Shown here: positions 11,528-26,880 of the stretch, in pieces
Layout: every line of letters begins with the position of its first letter
Position numbering within the stretch: position 1 is the stretch's first letter
DNA from: Betaproteobacteria bacterium
GTDB lineage: Bacteria > Pseudomonadota > Gammaproteobacteria > Burkholderiales > Casimicrobiaceae
Assembly (NCBI GenBank): GCA_031360485.1
Contig: JANMBN010000052.1
Span: 14,087 to 78,086 of the forward strand
Length of the DNA stretch: 64,000 nt
Direction: 5' to 3'
Position numbers and translations under genes: made by a program
The notes under the pieces: generated by a model
What the model saw: only the letters and a program-made list of their open reading frames with translations
Told to the model about the DNA's origin: nothing
Databases searched by the model: none

Positions 11528-11578
11528 CGGGGTCTCCTTCCGGATTGACGATCGAGCGGGATGTCGGTGGCGGTCGCG

Positions 11579-12330: not shown

Positions 12331-12355
12331 GCACAGGTTTCGATTGGTTTCGATT

Positions 12356-12399
12356 AAACGTTCGTTTTGATGGTAGGACGGCTCGGAGCGCGGTGTCAA
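12356..12399 (-). promoter_or_regulatory. sigma70-like promoter plus PsrA-type operator of the TetR/fad operon
   Basis: On the minus strand: TTGACA (12399..12394), an 18-nt spacer, TACCAT (12375..12370), then AAAC-GAAC-GTTT (12367..12356). This fits the C/GAAAC-N2-4-GTTTG/C operator pattern known for Pseudomonas PsrA. Two 10-bp direct repeats GGTTTCGATT (12336..12355) follow. Confidence 0.5.
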
Positions 12400-12635
12400 C
12401 GCGTCGTTCGCATTGGGGCGTTGGAGGAAACCAACCACGGAGCGCAGCGAACAGGCGTCGATGTGTGTGCTCACTTATCATAAGATCGCCTTCCAATGCC
12501 CGTCGCGATTTGTTCGGCCGCGCATTGATCTCCTGCTCGGGATCCCATGGCGATGGGACGGAAGCGGCTTGCGGACAACAAGTCCTGCGCGATTTCCGAA
12601 CCGGAACGGTAAAGTGCGGGCTGACCGGATCCTCG

Positions 12636-13668: not shown

Positions 13669-13956
13669 ATGGCCGTGATTGCGATCGAGAAAAAACACAC
13701 GCTGTCGCACAAGAAGGCGAAGGAGTCCGCCGGCAAAGTCGCCGACGATCTCAACGCCCGGTTCGACCTCGAATACACCTGGAAGGGCGACGAGATCGAG
13801 TTCCGGCGCCCCGGCCTCACCGGTGCGCTGCACGTGGGAAAGGACGCCGTCCGCCTCGATTGCGAGCTCGGGTTCATGCTCTCGTTGCTGAAGCCGACCA
13901 TCGAAGCCGAGGTGCACAAGCAGTTCGACAAGTACTTCGGCAAGGCGAAGGCCTAG
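13669..13956 (+). CDS. putative polyhydroxyalkanoic-acid-system small protein (PHA_gran_rgn family)
   Basis: 95 aa: MAVIAIEKKHTLSHKKAKESAGKVADDLNARFDLEYTWKGDEIEFRRPGLTGALHVGKDAVRLDCELGFMLSLLKPTIEAEVHKQFDKYFG. This pattern matches the small family found in PHA loci. GGGAGGTGG RBS. TAG stop is followed in frame by TGA. Confidence 0.65.
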   Translation: MAVIAIEKKHTLSHKKAKESAGKVADDLNARFDLEYTWKGDEIEFRRPGLTGALHVGKDAVRLDCELGFMLSLLKPTIEAEVHKQFDKYFGKAKA

Positions 13957-14001
13957 TGAACTGAGTCAGAAGTTCGCTCGCGTCGCAACGCGTCCCGCGC
14001 T

Positions 14002-14790
14002 TCAACCCGCCGGCGCGGGGGGGGGCGCCACGGCCGGCGTTTCGTCGTCCGCACTGCCGAGCGGATCGGGGAACGGCGCCGTGTCGCCGGCAAACATCGA
14101 ATCCATCAGCGCCCGCTCGCGCCGATCGATCGTCGCGAGGAATTCGGCCGCGCCGCCCATTTTCCGGAACGCCGAAAAGCCGCGCTCGAGAAACTCCTGC
14201 AGCACGCCCAATCCGGCAGCGTGCGCCGGGTGCCGCATCATGGCGAGCGCGGCGCGGATCAGCGGCTTCCCGACGTAGATGTCGATCGACTTGCCGAATT
14301 CGCCGATCAGCCGGATCTGGCGTTCGCGCGCGGGCCGGTTGTCCGTCGCGCGGTACGCGGCGCAATAGTCGGCGACGGTGAACGGGACGTCCCCGTACGG
14401 CAGCCGCGCCAGCAGCAGCCGGTCGAGTTCCTGCGACAGCGCATTGAGCTCCATCGCCTTCGCCACCGACACGGTCACCCGCTCCGGAAGCATCCGCGTC
14501 ATCACCGGCGCGGCGCGCGCGAGATCGGCATCGCGCCGCGAAAAGTCGGCGGCGCCATAGAGGTCCGTCTTGAAGAAGGCGATCGCGTCGGCGTAGCGCG
14601 GCTGCGCCGCGAGATCCGCGTACGTCACGCCCAATCGACTCGCCTGCCAATGGGAAAGGCGTGCGAGCGCACGGGCGAGATCCGGATCCGCGCGCCGCTC
14701 GGCGTGCAGCCGCGCCACGCGGTGGAGTTCGCGTTCGAGCGCCTTCGGCGCCGTGTCGGGCAGGCGGATGTCGGTCGATGCGTTGGGCAC
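14002..14790 (-). CDS. conserved hypothetical protein (start uncertain)
   Basis: Only the last ~262 codons of track ORF 14002..16362 look coding (VPNASTDIRLPDTAPKALERELHRVARLHAERR...LQEFLERGFSAFRKMGG...). Everything upstream is antisense to the phasin and patatin genes. There is no ATG, so GTG 14790 is assumed. Confidence 0.45.
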   Translation of the reverse strand: MPNASTDIRLPDTAPKALERELHRVARLHAERRADPDLARALARLSHWQASRLGVTYADLAAQPRYADAIAFFKTDLYGAADFSRRDADLARAAPVMTRMLPERVTVSVAKAMELNALSQELDRLLLARLPYGDVPFTVADYCAAYRATDNRPARERQIRLIGEFGKSIDIYVGKPLIRAALAMMRHPAHAAGLGVLQEFLERGFSAFRKMGGAAEFLATIDRRERALMDSMFAGDTAPFPDPLGSADDETPAVAPPPAPAG

Positions 14791-14970
14791 GAGGAATGTA
14801 CTTGGCAGGCTTCGCGCGCGCACGGCGGGACGGGGATCGCCGCGCAAAAGTCTAGCAGGCAGCCGGCAACCCGGCGCGTCCTTTAGTGTGTTTCCTCTAA
14901 TCGATAGGGGTAAGTTGGCGTCAATCGCCACACCAACGCGAGACCTCCCACCCTCCCAAAGGAAACGACC

Positions 14971-15438
14971 ATGCTGAAGACCAATCTCAACGTCCAAACC
15001 AATCGCCTCGGCGAAGCCGCGATCGCCGCCTCGCGCCAAATGTGGCTCGCAAGCCTCGGCGCCGCCGTCGTCACCCGCGACTGGGTGAAGGGCGAAGCCG
15101 GCGACATGTTCAAGACGCTGGTCAAGGAAGGGACCGTCGTCGAATCGCGCGCGATCCGCTTCGTGGGCGACCGGATCGAGACTTCGGTTTCGCTCGCGAA
15201 CACGATGTGGAAAGAGACGCGCAAGACCGTCGAATCGACAGTGAAGCAGGCTGCCGACACGGCCGTCGGCATCGCACAGCAGGTTCTGCCGAAGTCGCTG
15301 CCGAAGTTCGAGCTGCCTCCCGTGCTGAAGACCGGCAAGCCCGCCGCTAAGGCCGCCAAGCGGACGAAGCGCACGATCAAGGTCGCAAAGAAATCGACGC
15401 GTACCGTCAAGGCTGCCCGGAAGTCGAAGCGCGCCTGA
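14971..15438 (+). CDS. phasin (PhaF/PhaI-type granule-associated protein) with Lys/Ala-rich histone-H1-like tail
   Basis: The N-terminal RQMWLASLGAAVVTRDWVKGEAGDMFKTLVKEGTVVE matches the poly(hydroxyalkanoate) granule-associated protein family. C-terminal tail: KTGKPAAKAAKRTKRTIKVAKKSTRTVKAARKSKRA. Confidence 0.8.
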   Translation: MLKTNLNVQTNRLGEAAIAASRQMWLASLGAAVVTRDWVKGEAGDMFKTLVKEGTVVESRAIRFVGDRIETSVSLANTMWKETRKTVESTVKQAADTAVGIAQQVLPKSLPKFELPPVLKTGKPAAKAAKRTKRTIKVAKKSTRTVKAARKSKRA

Positions 15439-15480
15439 TAAGGTAGCATTGCACCGCCCAACAACCCCGCGAGGAGATCC

Positions 15481-16752
15481 ATGCCGGAACGTACGGCGAC
15501 CGGGCGCGCCGTCCGCGCCCGGAAACGGAGGCGCGCGCGTCCCCGTGTGGGTCTCGCGCTGGCCGGCGGCGGCCCGCTGGGCGGGATCTACGAGGTCGGC
15601 GCGCTGCTCGCGCTGACCGACTCGCTCGACGGCATCGATTTCACCGACCTCGACGTCTACGTCGGCGTGTCTTCCGGCGGTTTCGTCGCCGCCGCGCTGG
15701 CGAACGGCATTTCGCCGACGCAGATGTATCGACTCTTCATCGACGACGGCGCCGACGCTGCGCTGACGCCCCAGGTCTTCCTGCGCCCCGCGCTGTCCGA
15801 GTTCGCGCACCGCGCGGCGTCGGTCCCCGGGCTCGTCGCGCGTGCCGCGCTGCAGTGGTTGCGCGACCCGTTTCGCCATGGCGTGATGGAATCGCTGGCC
15901 ACGCTCGCCCACGCGGTGCCGACAGGCATTTTCGACAATCGTTCGATCGGCGACTTTCTCCGCCGCCTGTTCGCCGCCTCCGGCCGCACCGATGATTTCC
16001 GCCGGCTCGGCCGCAAGCTGTTTCTCGTGGCGACCAACCTCGACACCGGCGCGTCGGTCACCTTTGGCCAACCCGGACGCGATCACGTTCCGATCTCGAA
16101 GGCCATCGAGGCCTCGGCCGCGCTGCCCGGCCTCTTTCCGCCGGTCAGGATCGGCGGCGAGTATTTCGTCGACGGTGCGCTCAACAAGACGCTGCATGCG
16201 TCGGTCGCGCTGGACGAAGGCGTCGACCTCCTCTTGTGCGTGAACCCGCTGGTGCCGTTCGACGCGAGCGCGGCTGGCCAGTACGGCCGGCTGACCGTCG
16301 GGAAGCTGAGCCAGGGCGGATTGCCGATCGTGCTTTCGCAGACCTTTCGCGCCATCATCCACTCGCGGATGAAGGTCGGGATGGACAAGTACCGGCGGCA
16401 GTACCCGGACGCCGATGTCGTGCTGTTCGAGCCGGATCGCGAGGACGCCGACATGTTCTTCGCCAGTCTATTCAGCTACGCGCAGCGCAAGCGGATCTGC
16501 GATGCGGCCTACCGGAAGACGAGACAGAACCTCGCAGACCGTGCCGATACGCTGGGCCCGCAGCTCGCAAGGCACGGCATCGCGCTGCGGCCCGACCGCC
16601 TTGCCGATCGCGCGCGCCGCGTGACCGACGCACTGACCGACTCGCGCCCGCTGCACGTCGGCAAGCACCGACACAGTGCGGTGCGGCAGACCACGCGCGA
16701 TCTCGCGCACACGCTCGACCATCTGGCGCGCTGGCTCGCCGGCGCCCGCTGA
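15481..16752 (+). CDS. patatin-like phospholipase/lipase
   Basis: Oxyanion Gly-rich loop GGGPLGG, nucleophile elbow GVSSGG (GxSxG) and catalytic Asp motif VDGALN (DGA). Starts 43 nt after the phasin stop. Confidence 0.85.
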   Translation: MPERTATGRAVRARKRRRARPRVGLALAGGGPLGGIYEVGALLALTDSLDGIDFTDLDVYVGVSSGGFVAAALANGISPTQMYRLFIDDGADAALTPQVFLRPALSEFAHRAASVPGLVARAALQWLRDPFRHGVMESLATLAHAVPTGIFDNRSIGDFLRRLFAASGRTDDFRRLGRKLFLVATNLDTGASVTFGQPGRDHVPISKAIEASAALPGLFPPVRIGGEYFVDGALNKTLHASVALDEGVDLLLCVNPLVPFDASAAGQYGRLTVGKLSQGGLPIVLSQTFRAIIHSRMKVGMDKYRRQYPDADVVLFEPDREDADMFFASLFSYAQRKRICDAAYRKTRQNLADRADTLGPQLARHGIALRPDRLADRARRVTDALTDSRPLHVGKHRHSAVRQTTRDLAHTLDHLARWLAGAR

Positions 16753-16769
16753 CGACACGGCGGGCGTTG

Positions 16770-16793
16770 CGCGCGGCATTCGATTGCCGCGCG
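16770..16793. promoter_or_regulatory. 24-bp near-perfect palindrome, candidate TetR operator
   Basis: CGCGCGGCATTCGATTGCCGCGCG has 22 of 24 positions self-complementary. It lies 60 nt upstream of the TetR ATG (16853) and just after the patatin stop. Confidence 0.45.
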
Positions 16794-16852
16794 GGCCGGC
16801 ACGCGATCCGGCCTGCTACACTCGGCGCGTCGCCCCTCCTCCGTTGCCGGCC

Positions 16853-17500
16853 ATGGCGGAAAAAAAACGTCCCCGCCGCACCCGCGAACGGATCCTCGAG
16901 ACCGCTCTCGCGCTGTTCAATCACTCCGGCGCGCCGCGCGTCACGACGGCGGACATCGCCGACGAGATGAACATCAGCCCCGGCAATCTCTACTATCACT
17001 TCGCCAACAAAGACGAGATCGTCTTCGAGCTGTATGCGGCGTACGAGGCGCGCGTCCTGCCGCTCTACGCCAACCCGCGTGGGCGGCGCCTTGGCGTCGA
17101 CGACCTGTGGCTCTGGCTGCATCTGCTGTTCGAGCAGATGCGCGATTACCGCTTCCTCTACCGGGACCTGGACGAGCTCACGTCCCGCGATCGAAAGCTC
17201 GGTGCGCGCTTCGGCGCGTTGCTCCGGAAGGGCGCCGCGACCGTGGTAGAGTTGTGCCGCGGCATGGGAGAAGCCGGGACGATGCGCGCGTCGCGCCGCG
17301 AGATCGAGACCCTGGCGCAGAACGTCGTGCTCATTGCCGCGTACTGGTCGTCGTACGATCGGATTCGCCGCGCCGCGCGTGACGACGCGCCGGAGCCCGA
17401 CGCCGGCCGCGCCGCCTATCAGGTGCTCGCGTTGTTCGGGCCTTACCTCACGGGCGACGCTCGCGCGTACCTCGACCGTGTCTCGGCCGACTATCTCTGA
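16853..17500 (+). CDS. TetR/AcrR-family transcriptional regulator
   Basis: HTH region RERILETALALFNHSGAPRVTTADIADEMNISPGNLYYHFANKDEI. Start at MAEKKRP. Confidence 0.85.
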   Translation: MAEKKRPRRTRERILETALALFNHSGAPRVTTADIADEMNISPGNLYYHFANKDEIVFELYAAYEARVLPLYANPRGRRLGVDDLWLWLHLLFEQMRDYRFLYRDLDELTSRDRKLGARFGALLRKGAATVVELCRGMGEAGTMRASRREIETLAQNVVLIAAYWSSYDRIRRAARDDAPEPDAGRAAYQVLALFGPYLTGDARAYLDRVSADYL

Positions 17501-17512
17501 CGGAGAAATCGC

Positions 17513-18289
17513 ATGGCGAAGAAATGGGCCGCGTTCCCGCACCCGGAAAAGACCTACTTGCACGACATCGCGGGGCTCAGGAAAGTCTGGGCGCGCCTGC
17601 ACCGCGGCGATTGCGAGCCATTGCCGAAAGAACCCGCCGTGCTGGACGCGTGGCGCCACTTTCACGCCGGCGACTTCGGCGACGCGGTCGACGCGGGGCG
17701 CAAGGCCGGTGGCGCGGGGATCCATGCCGCGGTGAAGGCGCAGATGATCTACGCGAACTACCTCGAGAAATCCGAAAAGGCGAAGCTCGCGCTGCTCGAG
17801 GAGGCCGCGGGCTGGGCCGATGAGCGGCGCGCCGAGGCGCCGAAACTCGCCAACGCGCATTATCTGTACGCCTATGCGCTGGGTCGCTACAGCCAGGGCA
17901 TCTCGGTCGCGAAGGCGCTGGCGCAGGGCTTCGGCGGCAAGATCAAGGATGCGCTCAATACGGCACTCAAGCTCGAGCCGAAACACGCGGACGCCCACAT
18001 CGCCTACGGGTCGTATCAGGCCGAGATCATCGATAAGGTCGGCGGGCTCGTGGCGGGAATGACCTACGGCGCGAAAAAGGACTCCGCGCTCGAGCATTTC
18101 CAGAAGGCATTGAAGCTCAATCCCGATTCGGCGATTGCACGGATCGAGTACGCGAACGGCCTCATCATGCTGTTCGGAAAGACCCGGATGGCCGACGCCG
18201 AGAAGCTCTACAAGGAAGCGGCAGCATGCAAACCCGCGGACGCCATGGAGCGCCTGGACGTCGAGCTCGCGCGCTCGGAGCTGGATTAG
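17513..18289 (+). CDS. conserved hypothetical, all-helical (TPR-like) protein
   Basis: 258 aa with G/C-rich third positions, 12 nt after the TetR stop. Repeated helical hairpin-like segments (AHYLYAYALGRYSQ, ALKLEPKHADAHIAYGSY, ALKLNPDSAIARIEYANG). Confidence 0.55.
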   Translation: MAKKWAAFPHPEKTYLHDIAGLRKVWARLHRGDCEPLPKEPAVLDAWRHFHAGDFGDAVDAGRKAGGAGIHAAVKAQMIYANYLEKSEKAKLALLEEAAGWADERRAEAPKLANAHYLYAYALGRYSQGISVAKALAQGFGGKIKDALNTALKLEPKHADAHIAYGSYQAEIIDKVGGLVAGMTYGAKKDSALEHFQKALKLNPDSAIARIEYANGLIMLFGKTRMADAEKLYKEAAACKPADAMERLDVELARSELD

Positions 18290-18339
18290 AGACTGCGGCG
18301 CGCTGGGCATCCCCGGAATGAGTCGCCGTCCGGCGACTG

Positions 18340-19812
18340 CTATGCCGAGGTCCCCCCTACTGCCCTCGCGGCGACCGCGGGATCGAGGTCGCCCTCGCGC
18401 GGCCAGGGAGCCAGCAGCGTCGTCAGCACCAGCTTCTCGAACTCGGGGCCAAAGCGCGCGATGATGCCTTCGGGATCCGGGACCAGTCCGCGGTCGGTGA
18501 TGAGACCGAACTGCACGTGGCCGGCGTACGACAGGATCGAGACACCCATTCCGATGTCGCCGGATTGCGGCACCCAGAACAGGAAGCGCTCGATCGCAGC
18601 ACCCGCGAAATAGAGTTGCTGCTGCGGACCGGGCACGTTCGTCATCACCGCGCTGCCGTTGCGCGCCAGCGCCTGCAGGAGCTGCTCCTGGAGCATCTTC
18701 GGTCCCGCACCCATCGCCGCGAGCAGGCCGAGCGCCAGGATCGGCTGATAGCTTCCCTTCAGCGCGTCCATGTTCGCCCGCACCGCATACAGCCGTTCCA
18801 CGGGATTTTCGATGCCGAGCGGCAGATCGAGAAAGACGAGCCCGAACTGGTTGCCGAGCCGATACGCCTTCTCCAGCGGACGCAGGTTCACCGGCACCAG
18901 CGCACGGATCATCACGCCGTCGGCGGGGTCGCCCTTGTGCACCAGGTACTCGCGCAGCGCGCCCGCGACACAGGACAGGAGGACGTCGTTGACCGAAGCG
19001 GCGAGCGCCTTGCTGACGGCCTTCACTTCGTCGAGGGAGATCGGCTCGGCCCAGGCGACGCGCTTGGCCACACCCGGCTTGCCCTTGAACCGCGTCGCCG
19101 AATCCTGCGGCATCAGCGCGAGCTTCGCGATTTCGGCCGTCAGCGCGCCGCCCTGCTCGGCCAGCGCGACGGCGCTCGCCGGGTCCTGCCAGATGGCGGC
19201 ACCCTTCTCGATCAGCGCCGATCCGGCCTTGCGCGCCAGCTTCATCACGCCGGAGACCGGCTTCATCAGCTGCGCGAGCGCATCGTCCGCGTCGGCGCTC
19301 TGCCGGCGCCGCGGCGCGGGCTCGAACGGCATCGCAGGCGGCCCCTCCGGCGCCGCGTCGGTCATCGACATCAGCACGCGCACGAGGGCGATGCCGTCGG
19401 CGTAGCAATGATGAATGCGCGCGATCAGCGCGCTTGCGCCGTTGAAGTTTTCGACGAGGTGGAACTGCCACAGCGGTCGCGCCGGATCGAGCGGCACGCT
19501 GGCGAGGCGGCTCACCAGCGTCTGCAGCTCCTTCGTCCCGGCACGGCCGGGCAGAGCGACGCGCGCGACATGCTTTTCGATATCGAAATCGATGGCGGTT
19601 TCCCAGTACGCGGCGCCCAGACGTTCCGTGGGGCGCTGGCGAAACCGCTGGAACTTGAGGAAGCGCTCCTCGATGATTCGCGCAAGTCGCTCGAGGCGAA
19701 TGCGCTCGGCGAAGATCAGCACGCCGCAGATCATCATCAGATTGCTCGGCCTGTCCATCCGCAGCCAGGCGGTGTCGACTGCCGAAATCTTTTCGCGCCG
19801 GGAGCTGGTCAT
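18340..19812 (-). CDS. wax ester synthase / acyl-CoA:diacylglycerol acyltransferase (WS/DGAT)
   Basis: Catalytic HHxxxDG motif present as IHHCYADGIAL. The N-terminal SAVDTAWLRMDRPSNLMMI and the 490-aa length are typical of the family. Confidence 0.9.
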   Translation of the reverse strand: MTSSRREKISAVDTAWLRMDRPSNLMMICGVLIFAERIRLERLARIIEERFLKFQRFRQRPTERLGAAYWETAIDFDIEKHVARVALPGRAGTKELQTLVSRLASVPLDPARPLWQFHLVENFNGASALIARIHHCYADGIALVRVLMSMTDAAPEGPPAMPFEPAPRRRQSADADDALAQLMKPVSGVMKLARKAGSALIEKGAAIWQDPASAVALAEQGGALTAEIAKLALMPQDSATRFKGKPGVAKRVAWAEPISLDEVKAVSKALAASVNDVLLSCVAGALREYLVHKGDPADGVMIRALVPVNLRPLEKAYRLGNQFGLVFLDLPLGIENPVERLYAVRANMDALKGSYQPILALGLLAAMGAGPKMLQEQLLQALARNGSAVMTNVPGPQQQLYFAGAAIERFLFWVPQSGDIGMGVSILSYAGHVQFGLITDRGLVPDPEGIIARFGPEFEKLVLTTLLAPWPREGDLDPAVAARAVGGTSA

Positions 19813-19950
19813 GCGGGGAGGAAGGCGGGTCGCACAGGGGCCTGGCGGCCCGGAAGATTCGGATGCGGACGCGCGCAGATTGCGCGCGCTTTCGGCTTCG
19901 CGCTAAAGTAGCACAAACCCCGCGCGCGGGGAAAACCGGAGGAGGATCCG

Positions 19951-20226
19951 ATGGCTGCGCCGAAAAAAGACGATACCAAGACCCGATTCGAAGCGGCCGC
20001 AGCCGCGGCCAAGCAGACGAAGAAGAAGCCGGACAATGCGACGCTGCTCAAGCTCTACTCGTATTACAAGCAGGCGACCGACGGCGACGTCAGGGGCGAG
20101 CGTCCCGGCGGCTTCGATTTCGTCGGCGGCGCAAAGCACGACGCGTGGTCCAAGCTCAAAGGGATGAGCAGGGACGACGCGATGCAGAATTACATCAAGC
20201 AGGTCGACAAGCTGAATCGGGAATAG
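19951..20226 (+). CDS. acyl-CoA-binding protein (ACBP)
   Basis: 91 aa with the ACBP signature: KPDNATLLKLYSYYKQATDGDV...PGGFDFVGGAKHDAWSKLKGMSRDDAMQNYI. Confidence 0.85.
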   Translation: MAAPKKDDTKTRFEAAAAAAKQTKKKPDNATLLKLYSYYKQATDGDVRGERPGGFDFVGGAKHDAWSKLKGMSRDDAMQNYIKQVDKLNRE

Positions 20227-20256
20227 CGCGCGCGCCTGTCCGCGTGCGCATCAGCG

Positions 20257-20778
20257 CTACCTAGCCGCAGCCTTGCGCGCCTTGGCCGCGGTCTTCGCGG
20301 CGCGCTTTTTCGCGGGTGCGTTTCCAACCGGGATCGCGCGCTTTCCTCCGGAGGCCTTGACGAGCATGTTGACGGCCCCGGCGAGTTCGTCGACGCGCGC
20401 GGCGAGACGTTGCACGTCGTTCTGCGTGTAGACCCCCAGCTTCGAAAGCGTCCGCGCGACGCGGTCCTCGAACACCTGCTCCAGCTTGTCCCACGTTCCG
20501 CCCGCCATTTGCTGCATCTCCTTTGCTTTGGCCGTCGCGGCGCCGCGAGCGGCGGCCGCCGTCTCCGTGGCGACCTTCCGGGTTCGATCCTGAAGCTGCT
20601 CGCCCTGTTTGACCAACGATTCGAACACCTTGGTGCCTTCCTGCTGCGCCCGGGAAAATGCCCCCAGGCCGGCGAGCCATATCTGGTGCGATGACTTGAG
20701 CATGCCCTGCGCCAGGTCGTCCTCCTTCGCCGCCCCGGTGTCGCCAGCCTCCATTTTCGCCTTCGCCTTTTTTAGCAT
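20257..20778 (-). CDS. phasin-family protein with basic Ala/Lys/Arg tail
   Basis: SSHQIWLAGLGAFSRAQQEGTKVFESLVKQGEQLQ parallels the first phasin. Tail: APAKKRAAKTAAKARKAAAR. GGAGA RBS before ATG 20778. Confidence 0.8.
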   Translation of the reverse strand: MLKKAKAKMEAGDTGAAKEDDLAQGMLKSSHQIWLAGLGAFSRAQQEGTKVFESLVKQGEQLQDRTRKVATETAAAARGAATAKAKEMQQMAGGTWDKLEQVFEDRVARTLSKLGVYTQNDVQRLAARVDELAGAVNMLVKASGGKRAIPVGNAPAKKRAAKTAAKARKAAAR

Positions 20779-21025
20779 CCTGCGGTCTCCTTGTGACGCT
20801 CGAGCCACACACGCCGCCTCGCGCCGTGCGGGTTCTGCATGCCCAGCGGCAATTCTAGGCGCACTCGGTTAGAGCAAACAAACTAATCGGCGAAGGCGGC
20901 ACGGGAACGCGCAGATTGCCGAGCACAATCCGCGCCGGCCGGAACCGCGGCCCCGCCCCCCACGGCGAGTTACAATCGCGCTCCACCGCACCCGGCAGGA
21001 CATCCGGGCGCCTTCATTTTCCCGG

Positions 21026-21036
21026 CCCCCCCCCCC
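21026..21036. repeat. homopolymeric C11 tract in the 5' region of the fatty acyl-CoA reductase gene
   Basis: 11 consecutive C, counted directly, ending 43 nt upstream of ATG 21080. Confidence 0.9.
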
Positions 21037-21079
21037 GCAAAAGGGACAGGCCCTCCGCCCAATCGCAAGGAGACTCCAG

Positions 21080-23065
21080 ATGGCTTATTTCGTCACCGGC
21101 GCGACCGGCTTCATCGGGCGGTACCTCGTCGAGAACCTCCTGAAGCGCGGCAAACCGGTCTACGTTCTCGTGCGCAAAGGCTCGGAGAAGAAGCTCGCGG
21201 CGATGCGCGAGCACTGGGGCGCCGACGACAAGCAGGTGATCGGGGTCACCGGCGATCTCGCGGCACCCGGTTTCGGCGTCGCCGCGGGTGACGCGAAGAA
21301 GCTCAAAGGCAAGATCGATCACTTCTTCCATCTCGCCGCGATCTACGACATCGCCGCGAGCGCGGAGGCGCAGCAGGTCGCCAATGTCGAGGGGACGAGG
21401 AACGCGGTACGGTTCGCCGAGGCTGTCCAGGCGGGCTGCTTCCATCACGTGAGCTCGATTGCCGCGGCGGGTCTGTACGACGGCACTTTTCGCGAGGACA
21501 TGTTCGCGGAGGCGGAGGACCTCGACCATCCGTACTTCAAGACCAAGCACGACTCCGAGGGCATCGTGCGCCGCGAGTGCAAGCGGCCGTTCCGCGTCTA
21601 CCGTCCGGGATTCGTCGTCGGCCATTCGAAAACCGGCGAGATCGACAAGATCGACGGGCCGTATTACTTCTTCAAGACGCTCCAGAAATTGCGCACGCTG
21701 CTGCCGCCGTGGATGCCGATGATCGGCATCGAAGGCGGGCGCATCAATATCGTGCCGGTCGATTTCGTCGCCGATTCGCTCGACTACCTCGCGCACAGGA
21801 AGGGGCTGGACGGCAAATGCTTCCACCTGACCGACCCCGAGCCGCATCGAATCGGCGAGGTGCTCAACATCTTCGCCAATGCGGGCCACGCGCCGCAGAT
21901 GACAATGCGCATCAACGCCAAAATGTTCGGATTCATTCCGGCGCCGATCCTCTACGGCCTCGGGTCGCTCGCGCCGGTCAAGCGCGCGATCAAAGTCGTG
22001 CTCACCGACCTCGGGATCCCGCGCGACGTGTTTCAGTTTATCAATTGGCCGACGCGCTACGACAACCGCGAGGCAACGAAGGCGTTGAAGGGCTCGGGAA
22101 TCTCAGTCCCGCGGCTGGAATCGTATGCGGCCAAGCTGTGGGACTACTGGGAGCGCCACCTCGACCCGGATCTCTTCATCGACCGTTCGCTGTCGGGCCG
22201 CGTCAAGGACAAGGTCGTCGTCGTGACCGGTTCGTCGTCGGGCATCGGCAAGGCAACCGCGCTGAAGCTCGCCGAGGCAGGCGCCAAGGTGATCCTCGTC
22301 GCGCGCGGCGAGGACAAGCTTCTCGAAACGAAGGCCGAGATCGACCGGACGGGCGGCAAGGCGTGGATCTACGCTGCCGACATCGCCGACCTCGCCTCCT
22401 GCGACGCGCTGGTTCAGCGTGTGCAGAAGGAGCACGGCGGTTGCGACTTCCTCGTCAACAATGCCGGCCGCTCGATCCGCCGCGGCGTGATCAACTCGTT
22501 CGACCGCTTCCACGATTTCGAGCGGACGATGCAGTTGAACTACTTCGGCGCGCTGCGGCTCATCATGGGCTTCCTGCCGAAGATGATCGAGAAGAAGCGC
22601 GGGCACATCATCAACATCTCGTCGATCGGCGTGCTGACGAACGCCCCGCGGTTCTCGGCGTATGTCGCGTCGAAATCGGCCCTCGACTCGTTCTCGGCGT
22701 GCGCCGCGTCCGAGTTCCTCGACAAGGGAATCCACTTCACGACGATCAACATGCCGCTCGTGCGCACGCCGATGATCGCGCCGACGAAGATCTACGAAAG
22801 CGTCCCGACGCTGTCGCCGGAGGAAGCCGCCGGCCTCGTCGTCGACGCCATCGTGCATCGCCAGGTGCGGATCGCGTCGCGCCTCGGCATCTTCGGCGCC
22901 GTGTCCCACGCGGCGGCCCCGAAGCTCACGCAGGTTCTGCTCAACACCGCGTTCAACATGTTCCCGGATTCGAGCGCCGCGATCGGGAAGAAGGGCGGCG
23001 AACCGCAGCCGCTGACCGCCGAACAGATGGCGTTCGCCCAGCTCACGCAGGGGATTCACTGGTAA
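21080..23065 (+). CDS. two-domain fatty acyl-CoA reductase (NAD-binding FAR domain + C-terminal SDR)
   Basis: N-terminal GATGFIGRYLVENLL Rossmann motif of the male-sterility/FAR type. Second domain has VVVVTGSSSGIGKATALKL and YVASKSAL (YxxxK). 661 aa, the architecture I recall for the longer Marinobacter alcohol-forming reductase. Confidence 0.8.
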   Translation: MAYFVTGATGFIGRYLVENLLKRGKPVYVLVRKGSEKKLAAMREHWGADDKQVIGVTGDLAAPGFGVAAGDAKKLKGKIDHFFHLAAIYDIAASAEAQQVANVEGTRNAVRFAEAVQAGCFHHVSSIAAAGLYDGTFREDMFAEAEDLDHPYFKTKHDSEGIVRRECKRPFRVYRPGFVVGHSKTGEIDKIDGPYYFFKTLQKLRTLLPPWMPMIGIEGGRINIVPVDFVADSLDYLAHRKGLDGKCFHLTDPEPHRIGEVLNIFANAGHAPQMTMRINAKMFGFIPAPILYGLGSLAPVKRAIKVVLTDLGIPRDVFQFINWPTRYDNREATKALKGSGISVPRLESYAAKLWDYWERHLDPDLFIDRSLSGRVKDKVVVVTGSSSGIGKATALKLAEAGAKVILVARGEDKLLETKAEIDRTGGKAWIYAADIADLASCDALVQRVQKEHGGCDFLVNNAGRSIRRGVINSFDRFHDFERTMQLNYFGALRLIMGFLPKMIEKKRGHIINISSIGVLTNAPRFSAYVASKSALDSFSACAASEFLDKGIHFTTINMPLVRTPMIAPTKIYESVPTLSPEEAAGLVVDAIVHRQVRIASRLGIFGAVSHAAAPKLTQVLLNTAFNMFPDSSAAIGKKGGEPQPLTAEQMAFAQLTQGIHW

Positions 23066-23107
23066 GTCCGCGGGGACCGCGAAAGGCCGGAAGCGCCGTC
23101 GGCGCCC

Positions 23108-24061
23108 TCAGCGGGCCGCGCCTTCCGCCGCTGCCGTTGCGCGCCCAGATTCCTGCGCGGCGCGCACAAGCTCCCGGGCGACGAGCGCGTACACGCCCGG
23201 ATCGCCGAGAAGCGCGTTGTGTCCGACGCCGACGAGTTCGATGTTCTCCGCACCGGGAAGGCGCGAACTCGTTTGCGGCGCGACCATCGTATCGTGCCAC
23301 GACCAGACGGAAACCAGCCGGGCGGCCGGCGTGGCGCCCTCGTCGCGATTGAGCTCGGCGAGCCACGCGTTACCCGGCCGCAATTGACCGAGGCAGATTC
23401 CGGGGAAAAGCCATGCGTGCACGCTGCCATGGTGCGGCGCGCCCAGCGTCATCACCAGGGCGATCCTCGACGCGCCGAAGCGACGCTGGTACGCGCGGGC
23501 GACGATCCCGCCCATGCTGTGGCCGACAAGCGCGACCCGCGCCGCGCCCGTCGCGCGAAGGATCGCGTCGACCTTCGCCGCGACCTGAGCCGCGAAATCG
23601 TCGATGGAGGCGAGCGGGGGGCCATAGCACATCGTGTAGACGGGACCGATGCCGCGCGCGACGAGATCACGGCGCATTCCGAACCACACGCCCGAATTGC
23701 ACAGTACGCCATGCAGCAGCAGGACCGGCGCCGCCGCGGGTGCCGGCGCCGGGTCGCGCATCAGCAAGCCGAAGAGCGCCATTCGCGGGCCCGACCGGAC
23801 AATCGCGCGCAACTCGTGCCAGTAGAGACGTACGCTCGCCGCGAAATCGATCCGCGACGCGGGCGGGCGCGGTGCGCGGTACAGCCACGCCAGCGCGAGC
23901 CAGGTCGAAGTGACCGAGAGCAGGACCGCGGCGTAGATCAGCGCCGCCCCCGCGACATATCCCCACGGGCTCGCACCGCCGGCGACCGCTGCCCCGGCCC
24001 ATGCGACGTACAGCGCGACGGCGCCCCCCGTGACGACCCAGAGCGCGATGGCGGTGATCAT
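23108..24061 (-). CDS. membrane-anchored alpha/beta hydrolase (lipase/esterase-like)
   Basis: Three N-terminal TM helices, then LLLHGVLCNSGVW and the nucleophile elbow VGHSMGG. Confidence 0.7.
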   Translation of the reverse strand: MITAIALWVVTGGAVALYVAWAGAAVAGGASPWGYVAGAALIYAAVLLSVTSTWLALAWLYRAPRPPASRIDFAASVRLYWHELRAIVRSGPRMALFGLLMRDPAPAPAAAPVLLLHGVLCNSGVWFGMRRDLVARGIGPVYTMCYGPPLASIDDFAAQVAAKVDAILRATGAARVALVGHSMGGIVARAYQRRFGASRIALVMTLGAPHHGSVHAWLFPGICLGQLRPGNAWLAELNRDEGATPAARLVSVWSWHDTMVAPQTSSRLPGAENIELVGVGHNALLGDPGVYALVARELVRAAQESGRATAAAEGAAR

Positions 24062-24155: not shown

Positions 24156-24728
24156 CTAGGCGCGCCGGCGACGCAACGCGAGCCCGCCGGCTGCCGCGAC
24201 GAGCATCAACGTCAGCGGCAACGCCCATCGTCCGAGGGCCGGAATCCGGCGAGCGAGCAGCGCGGCCGCCTGCTGCGCCGTCTGCGGACACGTTCCGTAG
24301 GGACCCACACACGAAAGCAGCACCTCCCGCGACGTGCAGTTGTAATAGACGAAGAATTCGGCTGTGTTGGCGGGCGCGGGCGGCGTTTCGCCGACGTACG
24401 CGTAGGAACCGATCAGCGTATTCGGAGGCTGCAGCAGCAGCAAGGGCATCTGGAATGTCGAGGTTCTGTTGACGACGTTCGACAACGACGTCGGCTGCTC
24501 GACCGGCACCAGCAATGTCGCGCCGGCGAGGTTCGTCGCGCGCCAGGATTCGCTGTGCGCTCCGAGGGTCGTCAGCGTGATATCGAGGTCGCCCGCCGTG
24601 CAGCCGGCGGTGGCGCTGAGTGCCACGCCCTCCGCGATCGCGTCCGCGTGCGCAGGCACGGCGGTCGTCGCAAAGAGCACGGCCGCGAAAAGTCCAATAA
24701 ACCATCCGGATTGGGCGGTTCGGCCCAT
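24156..24728 (-). CDS. secreted protein with IPTL-CTERM-type sorting signal
   Basis: Signal peptide MGRTAQSGWFIGLFAAVLFATTAVPAHA. C-terminus IPALGRWALPLTLMLVAAAGGLALRRRRA consists of an IP(T/A)L motif, Trp, a TM helix and an Arg cluster. Confidence 0.6.
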   Translation of the reverse strand: MGRTAQSGWFIGLFAAVLFATTAVPAHADAIAEGVALSATAGCTAGDLDITLTTLGAHSESWRATNLAGATLLVPVEQPTSLSNVVNRTSTFQMPLLLLQPPNTLIGSYAYVGETPPAPANTAEFFVYYNCTSREVLLSCVGPYGTCPQTAQQAAALLARRIPALGRWALPLTLMLVAAAGGLALRRRRA

Positions 24729-24991
24729 ATCCAACCTTTGTTCAATGCTTGAATGGAGAGAATCATGCGCCTCCGGAGGGCTTTGCGGCAAGCGGGATCC
24801 GCGAAAACTGCACTGTAAACAGGCTTCAGGGCAGGGTTTTTTGTTGGATTCCAACCACAAATGACGAATTGAAGCAAAACGTCGCTATCGCCCGACACTT
24901 TTTCGCGTTGTCGCCCGCCGACAAACCTGTCGGGCCCAACAGCTGGCGCGGACGCGCCCCGTGACGGACAGCGGATCTATCGGACCGGCGC

Positions 24992-25933
24992 CTAGCCGGT
25001 TGCGCGTTGCCCTTCGATCGACTCCATCCGCCAGGCCTTCAAAGCCGGCAACGTTCCGGCGAGATCGGGAATCAGCATGACGCCCGGCAGCGATTTGCGC
25101 ACGCGGCGCGTCATTTCGCCACCGGCCCACAATGCCATCTTGCCGGGGAGCTGGCGGCGCAGTGCCGCGAGCCCGTCACCGGCCTGCCGAACGGGAAACG
25201 CGCCGGAGAACGACAGCGCGATCACGTGCACGTCGTGCGCCAGCGCCGCGCGGCGGATATCGTCGATCGGCGTCTGCACGCCGAGCGACAGGCACTGCGC
25301 GCCCTCGGGCACGAGCAGCGCCTCGACCATCAGCAAGCCCATCCCGTGCTGTTCGCCGGGAAAGGTCGTCAACAGCACTTTGGGGACCCCGGTCTGCCGC
25401 GGAAAGGCGTTGATCACCGTGCGCAGCGCGACCTGTAGCTGCTCGGTGTACAGATGCTCCTCGAACACCGCGAGCTCACCGCGCATCCACGCGTCGCCCA
25501 CCGCGTGATTCAACGACGGAAGCGTCTCGAGGACAAACCGCTGGATGCCCTGCCGCATCAGCAGGTTCGCGAGGGCATTTTGCAGTGCGGCAGCCTCGTG
25601 ATCCGACAGAAGCGCAAGAATCTCCCGTTCGACCGCGGGCGCGGCCTGATCGCGGCGCGGCGCCGTGCGCCCGTCGGCCAGAGCGTTCAGTTCCTGGAGC
25701 GTGTGGTGGATGATCTTGCCGGGACGCAAGCCGACGTCCATCAGACGCTTGATCGCGCGGAGCTTGGCGACTTCGGCGACCGAGTACTGACGTTCGCCGT
25801 TGCCGTCGCGCGACGGTTTGGGAAAGCCGTAGCGGCGCTCCCACATCCGCAGGACGTCCTTCGACAGCCCGGCCTCGCGCTCAACGGCGCTGATGTTGAG
25901 GGCAAGGCTCGAGTTTTCGGCGGTCGGAGTCAT
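24992..25933 (-). CDS. MerR-family regulator with C-terminal cobalamin-binding domain (LitR/CarH-like)
   Basis: MerR HTH ISAVEREAGLSKDVLRMWERRYGFPKPSRDGNGERQYS. B12-binding signature E-x-H-x-x-G (PGEQHGMGLLMV) followed by a Rossmann-like strand pattern (VHVIALSFSG). Confidence 0.8.
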   Translation of the reverse strand: MTPTAENSSLALNISAVEREAGLSKDVLRMWERRYGFPKPSRDGNGERQYSVAEVAKLRAIKRLMDVGLRPGKIIHHTLQELNALADGRTAPRRDQAAPAVEREILALLSDHEAAALQNALANLLMRQGIQRFVLETLPSLNHAVGDAWMRGELAVFEEHLYTEQLQVALRTVINAFPRQTGVPKVLLTTFPGEQHGMGLLMVEALLVPEGAQCLSLGVQTPIDDIRRAALAHDVHVIALSFSGAFPVRQAGDGLAALRRQLPGKMALWAGGEMTRRVRKSLPGVMLIPDLAGTLPALKAWRMESIEGQRATG

Positions 25934-26093
25934 GGTCGTGTAGCGATCGGAAGGGTTGACGACGGGCCCGTGGACTCTTATCGTATCCGAAGTTCAGCTC
26001 TTGTCCAGGACAAATATGATCACGTTCGAAAAAATCGCCGCCCATGGCCGACCGCGATGCGGGACCGCCGAATCCCCTCGCAATGGCGACTCG

Positions 26094-26696: not shown

Positions 26697-26775
26697 ACAC
26701 CGCGGTTCCGTCCGGGATCGCCGAACGCCGCCCAACGCGCGCCATCGCGCCACTCGCCGTACGCGGCCGGATCGC

Positions 26776-26781
26776 CTATAA
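26776..26781 (+). promoter_or_regulatory. TATAAT -10 box for the tRNA gene
   Basis: Perfect TATAAT ends 11 nt before the tRNA 5' end and is followed by a GC-rich discriminator (CCGGCCCC). No convincing -35 box. Confidence 0.45.
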
Positions 26782-26792
26782 TCCGGCCCCTT

Positions 26793-26869: not shown

Positions 26870-26870
26870 A
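26823..26870 (+). repeat. 48-bp direct repeat, left copy (3' part of the tRNA; attL-like)
   Basis: GAATCATAATCCTTTGGTCCGGGGTTCGAGTCCCTGGTTCGCCACCAA is identical to 27764..27811. Confidence 0.9.
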
Positions 26871-26880
26871 TACTTACCGA

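Follow-up and report, generated by a model that had tools for sequence, protein, structure and literature searches.

The locus considered here lies in a stretch of 64,000 nucleotides (the window) from a Casimicrobiaceae-like betaproteobacterium, and the question it raises is whether eleven adjacent genes that bring phasins together with enzymes of wax-ester synthesis form a functional unit, and for what. A preliminary description had taken them for a self-contained locus for neutral-lipid bodies, built like a pha cluster with a WS/DGAT and a fatty acyl-CoA reductase (FAR) in place of the PHA synthase. The bacterial family carrying the cluster is abundant in soil and wastewater. All eleven genes were recovered at, or very close to, the positions first called, and all have the host coding pattern (GC3 of 0.80 to 0.89 in a genome of 67% GC). 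Profile searches agreed with the families proposed for the eleven genes, apart from the entries relabeled below; run on each product, they confirmed the family for all but the DUF8198 protein, for which our local Pfam was blank and NCBIfam positive.

The WS/DGAT acyltransferase (18340 to 19812, minus strand, 490 amino acids) matched both expected domains (PF03007 and PF06974; TIGR02946, 415 bits), carries the HHCYADG motif noted earlier, at residue 134, and matches the solved WS/DGAT structures from Marinobacter and Acinetobacter (6chj and 7nxg). The FAR (21080 to 23065, plus strand, 661 amino acids) was correctly described as a two-domain enzyme, with NAD_binding_4 at residues 5 to 233 and adh_short at residues 378 to 568. 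It matched NF005539/PRK07201 over its full length (975 bits versus a cutoff of 549), contains the motifs GATGFIG, GSSSGIG, NNAG, and YVASK, and shares 54% identity with an Acinetobacter SDR over residues 396 to 661; the PRK07201-type reductase has been equated with the characterized Maqu_2507 (PMC10351704). With a median identity of 80% across related loci, the FAR is among the best-conserved genes of the cluster. The acyl-CoA-binding protein (ACBP; 19951 to 20226, plus strand, 91 amino acids) had been called divergent, which holds for its direction of transcription but not for its sequence, which is canonical (PF00887, 99.4 bits; YKQAT...KHDAW). It adjoins the WS/DGAT gene in 75 of 80 related loci, with a median identity of 84%. 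FAR, WS/DGAT, and ACBP together are the canonical route to storage lipids (PMC10351704).

Both phasins are of the PhaF/PhaI type. Phasin 1 (14971 to 15438, plus strand, 155 amino acids), a PhaF/PhaI-type N-terminal domain followed by a Lys/Ala-rich basic tail, is a weak family member (PF05597, 32.6 bits versus a cutoff of 28.8) and fails TIGR01837 (25.4 versus 94.7 bits). Phasin 2 (20257 to 20778, minus strand), which also has a basic Lys/Ala tail, matched PF05597 with 138.7 bits and passes TIGR01837 with 101 bits against the same cutoff; its likely start is the ATG at 20778, preceded by the ribosome-binding site AAGGAGA, giving 173 amino acids in a reading frame open to 20808. The PHA_gran_rgn small protein (13669 to 13956, plus strand, 95 amino acids; PF09650, 95.4 bits; TIGR02610, 90.6 bits) was found in 55 of the 80 related loci and directly adjoins the WS/DGAT gene in the Rhodocyclaceae loci L072 to L074 and L077.

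The patatin-like lipase/phospholipase (15481 to 16752, plus strand, 423 amino acids; PF01734, 100 bits) has the reported GVSSG and DGA motifs plus GGGPLG, and its closest solved structure is PlpD. It does follow phasin 1, at a spacing of 42 rather than 43 nucleotides (nt), and this pairing is retained even in the gammaproteobacterial locus L079. The gene downstream of the FAR (23108 to 24061, minus strand, 317 amino acids; Abhydrolase_1, PGAP1, Lipase_2, and LCAT matches) encodes, as proposed, a membrane-anchored hydrolase with a GHSMGG motif. It is of the alpha/beta type, has two N-terminal hydrophobic helices, and is lipase-like: among solved sequences it comes closest to true lipases, namely B. 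subtilis LipA/EstA and a Burkholderia lipase. Its pairing with the FAR is retained in distant loci.

Two further products could be described more closely. The gene for a 258-amino-acid helical-repeat protein (17513 to 18289, plus strand) is real, and weak TPR matches and a fold search refine its product to a TPR-like protein. PF21033 (RMD1-3) scored 15.3 bits, below threshold in our local Pfam, and precomputed annotation lists it as an unmarked hit. The AF2 model (pLDDT 89) found the TPR domain of PTPIP51 as its top PDB fold match (7cc7; E 6.7e-6; TM 0.61/0.68), with the sterol binder BstC (7t1s) and a TPAT protein (8g52) as further top folds; no signal peptide was found in the protein. PTPIP51-type TPR domains handle phospholipids (PMC10243591), and the best folds matched are those of lipid-binding TPR domains (PMC10243591, PMC10942540). 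A fold similarity of TM ∼0.6 to 0.68, together with the subthreshold Pfam match, makes the protein a candidate for lipid binding or transfer. The product of 14002 to 14790, earlier left as hypothetical, is a DUF8198/FFLEELY-motif protein (262 amino acids) encoded on the minus strand, as indicated by NF047641 (227 bits versus a cutoff of 55) and the GC3 frame plot; our local Pfam copy gave no match, and PF26621 comes from precomputed annotation. Its AF2 model is all-alpha (pLDDT 87), with no fold neighbor in the PDB (best E 0.19).

A gene-neighborhood comparison showed that these genes are co-conserved: all eleven occur in 36 of the 80 related loci, always in the window order, and 46 loci carry ten of them. 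Given these 36 loci of identical order, the arrangement is far beyond chance expectation, and the cluster is genuine and strongly conserved. The same gene set was found on a 4.58-Mb contig (L085) with independent gene calls, and a rearranged core is kept in Rhodocyclaceae, in other Burkholderiales, and in one gammaproteobacterial MAG (Saccharospirillum). The adjoining beta-oxidation operon was confirmed as well; it encodes FadL, a 4HBT thioesterase, FadD, FadB, FadA, and FadE (1564 to 11527, minus strand) and, with its own TetR (11728 to 12474), spans 1564 to 12474. Its adjacency is kept in many relatives, including L085. Most relatives' loci also hold a GMC oxidoreductase, which is absent from the window, and one Rhodocyclaceae locus additionally has an aldehyde dehydrogenase; both are candidate steps for fatty-alcohol reoxidation. 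A MerR/B12-binding regulator and a glutathione peroxidase lie at 24992 to 26696, likewise in most relatives, and AhpC/TSA follows the FAR in Rhodocyclaceae loci. The suggestion that the combined architecture is uncharacterized holds for experiments, our literature search having found no expression, lipid, or localization data for any Casimicrobiaceae; part of the arrangement was described earlier, in a 2023 metagenome survey that reported neighborhoods of WS/DGAT, ACBP, a Maqu_2507-like SDR, and a PHA-system protein/phasin on Burkholderiales-like scaffolds (PMC10351704).

What is new here is a motif link between the phasin genes and the FAR. An 18-bp motif (consensus yTAGAGcAAwCAnaCTAA) matched twice in the window, versus 0.01 matches expected, once upstream of each phasin gene: site 1 (TTAGAGGAAACACACTAA; 14883 to 14900, minus strand) stands in the divergent DUF8198/phasin 1 promoter, 71 nt ahead of the phasin 1 ATG, and site 2 (TTAGAGCAAACAAACTAA; 20869 to 20886, plus strand) in the divergent phasin 2/FAR promoter. 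A position weight matrix (PWM) matched 146 times in the related loci (1.37 Mb), and all but one of these matches (145) fell at most 400 bp upstream of phasin 1, phasin 2, FAR, or DUF8198; shuffled sequence gave 0 to 1 matches. The PWM was trained on sites from the window-derived pattern, which makes its information content circular in part; the hit positions, however, were not preselected. The motif, whose orientation is fixed across loci, lies upstream of phasin 1 in 58 of 59 loci, phasin 2 in 50 of 67, FAR in 46 of 62, and DUF8198 in 45 of 53, and the FAR has its own copy where no phasin adjoins (L065, L071, and L076). Given that phasin and FAR upstream regions have this motif in common, the phasins appear to be wired to fatty-alcohol synthesis.

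The motif is absent upstream of WS/DGAT and ACBP, which have their own conserved promoter block. This near-invariant block (CGCGCTAAAGTAGCAC; 19899 to 19914, plus strand), obtained from an alignment of 64 intergenic regions, lies in the divergent WS/DGAT-ACBP promoter, is distinct from the 18-bp motif, occurs once in the window, and includes a −10-like TAAAGT ∼40 nt ahead of the ACBP start. Because this central synthetic pair lacks the 18-bp motif, the cluster is not one regulon. The proposed TetR-family regulator (TetR_N and PF13972, 129 bits; plus strand, 215 amino acids) stands, with its start reset to the ATG at 16853 (16853 to 17500); the solved structures that resemble it most, 3nnr and 3rh2, belong to uncharacterized TetRs. 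The motif is missing in L079, the one phasin/FAR locus without the cluster TetR, and this co-occurrence, with L079 as the single informative negative case, makes the regulator a candidate binder of the motif. The notion of a functional unit is thus backed by co-conservation in dozens of species-level genomes and by the promoter motif joining both phasins with the FAR; "self-contained" overstates the case, given the separate WS/DGAT-ACBP promoter block and the lack of the GMC oxidoreductase that most relatives carry.

Many Betaproteobacteria produce PHA, and a synthase encoded elsewhere could form ordinary PHA granules that are served by both phasins, by PHA_gran_rgn, and perhaps by the hydrolases as well; the locus would then be a general carbon-storage neighborhood whose wax-ester and PHA accessory genes are simply neighbors. 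Both protein families take their names from PHA contexts, phasin 2 and PHA_gran_rgn pass TIGR01837 and TIGR02610, and the synthase search covered 64 kb plus related loci. As had been noted, a profile search of ∼50 window open reading frames matched no PHA synthase or depolymerase family; a synthase was also not found in the fetched related loci, nor a PhaC signature peptide (a heuristic motif) in their six-frame translation (∼1.4 to 1.47 Mb). The FAR retains the phasin promoter motif when apart from a phasin, phasin genes stay paired with patatin and with the FAR in different families and even in a gammaproteobacterium, and PHA_gran_rgn adjoins WS/DGAT in Rhodocyclaceae, so we consider this explanation unlikely. 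WS/DGAT enzymes are bifunctional, and their specificity is not predictable from sequence; triacylglycerol could therefore be the main product, with the FAR serving another purpose, and the entry name of 6chj is indeed diacylglycerol O-acyltransferase. Against this stand the conservation of the FAR, its wiring to the phasin promoters, and the absence of Kennedy-pathway genes (GPAT, AGPAT, and PAP) from the locus, which make it very improbable.

A role in stress protection (oxidative, light, desiccation, or cold) instead of storage, through fatty alcohols/wax esters or membrane-lipid remodeling, is slightly less probable than the PHA explanation. Phospholipids would then be the targets of the patatin, lipase, and TPR protein, and the phasin-like proteins would be amphipathic chaperones. 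This reading accords with the peroxidase genes recurring near the cluster, with the frequent phospholipase activity of patatins and the likeness to PlpD, and with the phospholipid handling by PTPIP51-type TPR domains (PMC10243591). However, the adjoining FadL/beta-oxidation operon and the relatives' alcohol and aldehyde oxidation genes fit carbon-store turnover, the FAR-WS/DGAT-ACBP set is the canonical storage-lipid route (PMC10351704), and coat proteins are expected on inclusions, not membranes.

For wax-ester storage, acyl-CoA would come from the adjoining FadL/FadD/beta-oxidation operon or de novo synthesis and be buffered by ACBP; the FAR would reduce it via the aldehyde to fatty alcohol, which WS/DGAT would join to a second acyl-CoA as an ester. 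The hydrophobic product would collect in bodies coated by the two phasins, whose Lys/Ala-rich tails may tether them to the nucleoid, as PhaF does. The cytoplasmic PTPIP51/BstC-like TPR protein may carry lipid between membrane and body, PHA_gran_rgn and DUF8198 may contribute, and the patatin and membrane-anchored hydrolase would free alcohol and acid again; the GMC oxidoreductase of most relatives, with the aldehyde dehydrogenase in one Rhodocyclaceae locus, could bring the alcohol back to the acyl pool. The cluster TetR, with probably acyl-CoA or fatty alcohol as ligand, would act on the motif where it overlaps the −35 region of the phasin 1-patatin(-TetR-TPR), DUF8198, and phasin 2/FAR promoters. 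The alcohol-oxidation genes and the likeness of the TPR protein to lipid-binding domains agree with such lipid bodies. Building on family membership, catalytic motifs, conserved synteny, and the shared position-specific motif, we therefore regard it as probable that these bacteria have a conserved, partly co-regulated gene set to make, package, and re-use wax esters, possibly triacylglycerol too.

Our analysis points to the eleven adjacent genes at 13669-24061 as a conserved, partly coregulated wax-ester/neutral-lipid locus, a reading that we consider probable. Since the GC content of the window is 67%, most of its long open reading frames (ORFs) are spurious, and genes were therefore chosen by codon-position GC, with GC at the third position (GC3) of 0.80 to 0.89 for all eleven genes named in the preliminary description. 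Families were assigned by profile searches (a local Pfam copy and TIGR/NCBIfam models) and precomputed annotation. The left part of the cluster consists of a PHA_gran_rgn protein (13669-13956, plus strand; profile search), a DUF8198/FFLEELY motif protein of 262 amino acids (14002-14790, minus strand; NF047641 at 227 bits and PF26621 in the precomputed annotation, with no match in the local Pfam copy), a phasin with a weak PF05597 match (phasin1; 14971-15438, plus strand), a patatin (15481-16752, plus strand; PF01734, 100 bits), a TetR regulator starting at the ATG at 16853 (to 17500, plus strand; TetR_N and PF13972), and a TPR-like protein of 258 amino acids with weak TPR matches (17513-18289, plus strand). 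These are followed by the WS/DGAT (18340-19812, minus strand; PF03007, 134.8 bits, and PF06974, 135.3 bits), a canonical ACBP (19951-20226, plus strand), a second phasin (phasin2; 20257-20808, minus strand; PF05597/TIGR01837), whose likely start is the ATG at 20778 after an AAGGAGA Shine-Dalgarno sequence, the 661-amino-acid FAR with NAD_binding_4 and adh_short domains (21080-23065, plus strand; NF005539/PRK07201), and an alpha/beta hydrolase with a GHSMG motif (23108-24061, minus strand; profile search and motif). Profile searches and GC3 thus confirm the genes and families of the earlier eleven-gene observation, apart from minor changes in strand, start codons, and naming. A motif scan found the catalytic motifs intact in the WS/DGAT, patatin, FAR, hydrolase, and ACBP.

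The WS/DGAT carries HHCYADG at residue 134, which fits the HHxxxDG pattern, has both the catalytic and the C-terminal domain, scores 415 bits against a TIGR02946 cutoff of 310 bits, and aligns to the solved Marinobacter/Acinetobacter enzymes 6chj and 7nxg, so that it is predicted to be a member of the wax ester synthase/diacylglycerol acyltransferase family. The FAR combines NAD_binding_4 (residues 5-233) with adh_short (residues 378-568) and contains the motifs GATGFIG, GSSSGIG, NNAG, and YVASK; against NF005539, it reaches 975 bits (cutoff, 549), with residues 1-661 aligned to model positions 1-657. We assign it by these features to the two-domain Maqu_2507/PRK07201 type, the equivalence to Maqu_2507 coming from published work (PMC10351704). 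The FAR homologue search returned only relatives with at least 82% identity and no Marinobacter entry, while the plasmid database gave only Tsukamurella and Acinetobacter matches, with uninformative gene context. The C-terminal half of the FAR shares 54% identity with one of these, an Acinetobacter SDR that we take to be Acr1-like. This is consistent with the view, which Willis and colleagues are said to have published in 2011, that the C-terminal half of a Maqu_2507-type reductase is Acr1-like. The ACBP matches PF00887 with 99.4 bits over 75 of 76 profile positions and has the ligand-binding motifs YKQAT and KHDAW, as predicted for a canonical member of the acyl-CoA-binding protein family. 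Between phasin2 and FAR, 11 consecutive C residues at 21025-21035 lie 45 bp before the FAR start codon, where relatives have at most 6 C; this tract may be slippage prone or an assembly artifact.

Among the remaining products, the patatin has the motif set of a Ser-Asp dyad (GGGPLG at residue 29, GVSSG at 62, and DGA at 231) and is accordingly a predicted member of the patatin-like lipase family. A gap of 100 nt (16753-16852) follows the patatin gene. The nearest solved sequences to the hydrolase are lipases, namely, LipA/EstA of B. subtilis and lipases of Burkholderia/Pseudomonas. The AlphaFold model of the DUF8198 protein is all-alpha (pLDDT, 87) and has no PDB neighbor in Foldseek (best E value, 0.19), and for this reason we propose no function; its gene is almost always paired with that of PHA_gran_rgn, even where the two lie several kilobases from the WS/DGAT gene (loci L064 and L078 from related genomes). 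For the TPR-like protein, the precomputed annotation lists PF21033 (RMD1-3), an unmarked match with an E value of ≤1e-5 to a later version of the model, whereas the score in the local Pfam copy is 15.3 bits, below the gathering score of 26.7. Its AlphaFold model, built with 31 homologues (pLDDT, 89; pTM, 0.87), finds as its best PDB match the TPR domain of PTPIP51 (7cc7; E value, 6.7e-6; TM score, 0.61/0.68), and BstC (7t1s; TM score, 0.60/0.66) and a TPAT-family protein (8g52; TM score, 0.64/0.60) are further matches. These three rank above or amid designed consensus TPRs, with a sequence identity of just 15 to 22%. The PTPIP51 domain has been discussed as a lipid-transfer domain (PMC10243591), and BstC is a sterol binder resembling the T-component of TPAT transporters (PMC10942540), so that all three kinds of protein bind hydrophobic ligands or are implicated in handling them. 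The TPR-like protein resembles the PTPIP51/RMDN3 TPR domain, BstC, and the TPAT T-components by its predicted fold but, unlike the periplasmic BstC and TPAT proteins, it has no signal peptide and is predicted to be cytoplasmic. A cytoplasmic role in lipid binding would be a reasonable reading.

In a scan of the genome collection with the window WS/DGAT, we retrieved 80 loci, nearly all from metagenome-assembled genomes (MAGs) labeled Casimicrobiaceae, Betaproteobacteria, or Burkholderiales, with a best WS/DGAT identity of 84% and a tail at 50 to 55% identity composed of Rhodocyclaceae, “Ca. Methylophosphatis,” and one Saccharospirillum MAG. When 16 window proteins were compared with these loci by tblastn, all eleven genes were found in 36 of the 80, in every case (36/36) in the window order, and ten of the eleven were found in 46 loci; the incomplete loci are mostly truncated contigs or contain an insertion of ∼4 kb that shifts FAR and the hydrolase past the fetched flank. 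The highest median identities were those of the ACBP (84%), the FAR (80%), and the TPR-like protein (75%). Gene order is shuffled in the distant loci, where the same components recur: patatin, TetR, and TPR genes still adjoin WS/DGAT, the phasin gene is divergent from FAR or immediately 5' of patatin, the hydrolase gene comes after FAR, and PHA_gran_rgn immediately adjoins WS/DGAT. The Saccharospirillum locus (L079) retains WS/DGAT, TPR, phasin-patatin, and hydrolase-FAR and lacks TetR and ACBP. On a 4.58-Mb contig (L085), independent gene calls and Pfam labels gave this same gene set, with the fad operon again beside it. The preliminary description had made its interpretation depend on the genes being kept together in relatives, which the 36 full loci and L085 bear out.

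Most Casimicrobiaceae loci additionally contain a GMC oxidoreductase gene between DUF8198 and phasin1 (for example, L010:15704-17380 and L085:7711-9324), and the Rhodocyclaceae locus L074 has one as well (L074:18465-20255). This gene is missing from the window, where tblastn with the L085 protein found no copy in the 64 kb, and from its closest relatives (L001-L005, L023, and L028), a loss in the sub-clade of the window. In L074, FAR is followed by the genes for AhpC/TSA peroxiredoxin, hydrolase, GMC oxidoreductase, and aldehyde dehydrogenase, in this order; judging from family chemistry, a flavin alcohol oxidase/dehydrogenase and an aldehyde dehydrogenase would be the set needed to return fatty alcohol to the acyl pool. 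Two further small genes without a Pfam match occur inside the cluster in some relatives: L085 has one of 245 amino acids between TetR and patatin (L085:5086-5823), in the place of the 100-nt gap of the window, and one of 172 amino acids after the GMC oxidoreductase gene (L085:9321-9839).

On its 5' side, the cluster lies beside a beta-oxidation operon, as had been described: FadL, a 4HBT thioesterase, FadD, FadB, FadA, and an 839-amino-acid FadE are encoded on the minus strand (1564-11527), together with a second TetR (11728-12474). The FadD gene (3664-5382, minus strand) was at first suspected of a frameshift, but tblastn showed a single frame with one in-frame TAG at 4207-4209 (…PAYNG*IGLQIP…) that interrupts the gene; the reading frame is continuous apart from this stop codon, and the product shares 80% identity with the uninterrupted FadD of L085 (559 amino acids). 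The gene may be a pseudogene, or the stop codon may reflect a nonsense mutation specific to the strain or an error in sequencing or assembly. A Chalcone_3 (chalcone-isomerase-like) protein (747-1418, minus strand; 172 bits) adjoins FadL. Some proteins of this fold, from bacteria and plants, bind fatty acids, and the protein may thus belong to the fatty-acid uptake operon. On the other side, a small secreted protein with a signal peptide (24156-24860, minus strand; likely start near 24737) is encoded between the hydrolase and a MerR gene; its C-terminal IPALGRWALPLTLMLVAAAGGLALRRRRA tail resembles a sorting signal of the IPTL/PEP-CTERM type, and this protein is apparently not connected with the lipid genes. 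The MerR gene encodes a regulator with a B12-binding domain (CarH/LitR-like; 24992-25933, minus strand) and is followed by a glutathione peroxidase gene (25956-26696, plus strand), and both also flank the cluster in most Casimicrobiaceae loci. In the Rhodocyclaceae and other distant loci, an AhpC/TSA-sized gene lies directly after FAR (confirmed by Pfam for L074 only; L074:17044-17505), so that an association of peroxidases with wax-ester genes recurs. The region from 26000 to 29300 has a GC content of 0.60, compared with ∼0.67, and holds a PIN-domain gene (27175-27633) and a 409-amino-acid ORF without a Pfam match (27933-29162), after which comes an ECF-type sigma factor gene (29340-29960); it may be an inserted segment.

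Inspection of the three divergent intergenic regions of the window revealed the same 18-mer 5' of both phasin genes, TTAGAGGAAACACACTAA at 14883-14900 (minus strand) and TTAGAGCAAACAAACTAA at 20869-20886 (plus strand). With up to three mismatches, these are the only two sites in 64 kb, where 0.01 would be expected. The pattern, and then a weight matrix derived from it, was run on all 80 loci (1.37 Mb), and 145 of 146 matches sit at most 400 bp upstream of phasin1, phasin2, FAR, or DUF8198, compared with 0 or 1 match in block-shuffled sequence; the information content of the matrix is partly circular, while the positions of the matches were not chosen beforehand. The motif lies upstream of phasin1 in 58 of the 59 loci having this gene, of phasin2 in 50/67, of FAR in 46/62, and of DUF8198 in 45/53, and its orientation is constant, running against the phasin gene and with FAR and DUF8198. 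Loci with a GMC oxidoreductase have a further site in the GMC/DUF8198 divergent region, and where FAR lies apart from the phasin gene (three loci, L065, L071, and L076), it has a site of its own. The consensus, yTAGAGcAAwCAnaCTAA, has an outer symmetry of TTAG...CTAA. In the window, −10-like hexamers (TAAGTT for phasin1 and TAGAAT for phasin2) are found 10 to 11 bp past the motif on the phasin side, from which we read that the motif overlaps the −35 position; a scan of the intergenic regions for sigma-70 and terminator consensus sequences gave nothing above shuffle expectation.

The TetR of the cluster, with its N-terminal helix-turn-helix and ligand domain, is the only specific DNA-binding protein encoded there, and L079, the sole phasin/FAR locus without it, has no motif (best score, 4.0, versus 19 to 35 elsewhere). 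We infer from both observations that the cluster TetR binds the 18-bp motif. The WS/DGAT and ACBP genes do not have the motif; their 138-bp divergent region contains a near-invariant block, CGCGCTAAAGTAGCAC, at 19899-19914. We considered this block as a further copy and rejected it, since it has only CTAAAG in common with CTAGAG and scores below the threshold, and we treat it as a separate element. The cluster thus comprises at least two control units.

Chance or hitch-hiking adjacency of these genes is excluded by the synteny and the motif statistics. The family names of the phasins call for another explanation to be weighed, in which they serve PHA granules with a synthase encoded elsewhere in the genome. 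Phasin2 matches PF05597 with 138.7 bits and TIGR01837 with 101 bits (cutoff, 94.7), while phasin1 passes PF05597 (32.6 versus 28.8 bits) and fails TIGR01837 (25.4 versus 94.7 bits), indicating a divergent paralogue. Both end in basic Lys/Ala-rich tails, as does PhaF of Pseudomonas. By the genomic criterion for PHA association, a PHA synthase gene would lie near the phasin genes, and we found none: the claimed absence of PHA synthase and depolymerase families held among the ∼50 window ORFs scanned and extended to the L085 locus, and the PhaC signature peptide was absent from the 1.47 Mb of window and loci, a weak negative given that the pattern is heuristic. Together with the motif that links the phasins to FAR and the persistence of the gene pairings across families, this makes the PHA-granule explanation the less likely one. 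Whether the phasins coat non-PHA bodies appears to us evenly balanced. The locus is also a caution that the “PHA” labels of PF05597/PF09650 proteins may mislead the metabolic reconstruction of MAGs.

It is also possible that the product is TAG instead of wax ester, an outcome open to any WS/DGAT, against which stands the FAR, both motif linked and among the best-conserved genes. A role in stress lipids or membrane remodeling is suggested by the MerR/B12 regulator and glutathione peroxidase beside the cluster, here and in most relatives, and by the AhpC after FAR in Rhodocyclaceae.

The wax-ester locus that we favor shares its two enzyme families and its chemistry with the routes of Marinobacter aquaeolei VT8 (Maqu_2507) and Acinetobacter baylyi ADP1 (Acr1), and its FAR has the same 661-amino-acid two-domain architecture (PRK07201) as the Marinobacter reductase. 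To our knowledge, the wax-ester genes of VT8 and ADP1 are dispersed and have no known dedicated coat proteins, whereas the window enzymes are encoded in a single conserved locus that also specifies ACBP, two proteins of the phasin type, PHA_gran_rgn, DUF8198, patatin, a lipase-like hydrolase, TPR, and TetR, and the reductase gene has a promoter motif in common with the phasins. As for the generally known pha cluster of Pseudomonas putida (phaC1-phaZ-phaC2-phaD and phaF-phaI), the likeness lies in PhaF/PhaI-family phasins with basic C-terminal tails, a TetR-family regulator inside the cluster, a site at the phasin promoter overlapping the −35 region, a mobilizing hydrolase encoded alongside, and a link to beta-oxidation. 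The Pseudomonas type is defined by one or more class II synthases and PhaZ flanked by PhaD and phasins, of which only the phasin and TetR counterparts are present here; FAR and WS/DGAT replace the polymerizing step, and the hydrolases are a patatin and a lipase-like enzyme. The locus can thus be said to resemble a pha cluster in layout, as the preliminary description had it, but it is none, because the defining synthase and PhaZ-type depolymerase are absent.

Part of this gene context has been published. What is evidently this type of cluster was seen on Burkholderiales-like sediment metagenome scaffolds by Galvan et al. (PLoS One, 2023; PMC10351704), who found ws/dgat with an ACBP gene as its neighbor, an SDR sharing 59% identity with Maqu_2507, a “polyhydroxyalkanoic acid system family protein,” and, in the case of one scaffold, a phasin. 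Their account is confined to short scaffolds; the operon of patatin, TetR, and TPR, the DUF8198 and lipase genes, conservation across the family, and the regulatory motif are not covered in it, nor does it include experiments. Full-text searches on phasins with wax esters or lipid droplets, Maqu_2507, Casimicrobiaceae, and FFLEELY returned nothing else relevant. The earlier statement that the architecture had not been characterized is therefore right for experiments and too broad for the core neighborhood. The wax-ester enzymes were likewise known, and the central claim remains inferential; what the present analysis adds is that the complete architecture comprises eleven genes and is conserved across the family, that an extended core occurs in other orders, that an operator-like motif links the phasins to FAR, that the model of the TPR protein appears lipid-binding-like, and that alcohol/aldehyde oxidation genes recur.

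Taken as a pathway, the ACBP would buffer acyl-CoA, which the FAR would reduce to fatty alcohol for esterification by the WS/DGAT. The phasins, perhaps with PHA_gran_rgn and DUF8198, would package the presumed product, and the TPR protein would carry a lipid from the membrane to the body or back. Mobilization of the store would fall to the patatin and the anchored lipase, and the GMC oxidoreductase (in relatives) and the neighboring fad operon would consume the released products. TetR would gate the phasin, patatin, FAR, and DUF8198 promoters via the 18-bp site, its ligand and the sign of its control being conjectural.

The neutral-lipid bodies of actinobacteria have known coat and building proteins, as do PHA granules; for Gram-negative wax-ester accumulators, we know of essentially none, also from the literature searched here. 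Candidates for such body proteins can be named from the locus (both phasins, PHA_gran_rgn, DUF8198, and the TPR protein with its lipid-binding-like model), as can a candidate regulator, to which an 18-bp site is assigned, and lipases that may mobilize the store. All of them are encoded together in a conserved block, and the family is one often met in soils and wastewater plants, so that the organization of bacterial wax-ester bodies becomes directly testable; within this group, transformation has been reported for C. huifangae SJ-1 (PMC13515534). The compact cassette could also help to engineer wax-ester production. We tentatively put forward a further-reaching joint reading, which we think possible while doubting that all of its parts will hold: PF05597 phasins, PHA_gran_rgn, and DUF8198 would not be PHA specific but would coat and assemble the wax-ester bodies of Gram-negative bacteria, controlled together with FAR by a dedicated TetR/18-bp-operator switch, and the cytoplasmic PTPIP51-like TPR protein would act inside the cell as a bacterial lipid-transfer protein that fills or empties the body. 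If true, the cluster would define, at the genetic level, a “lipid droplet organelle” module that is widespread in a family abundant in soil and activated sludge and present also in Rhodocyclaceae and some Gammaproteobacteria.
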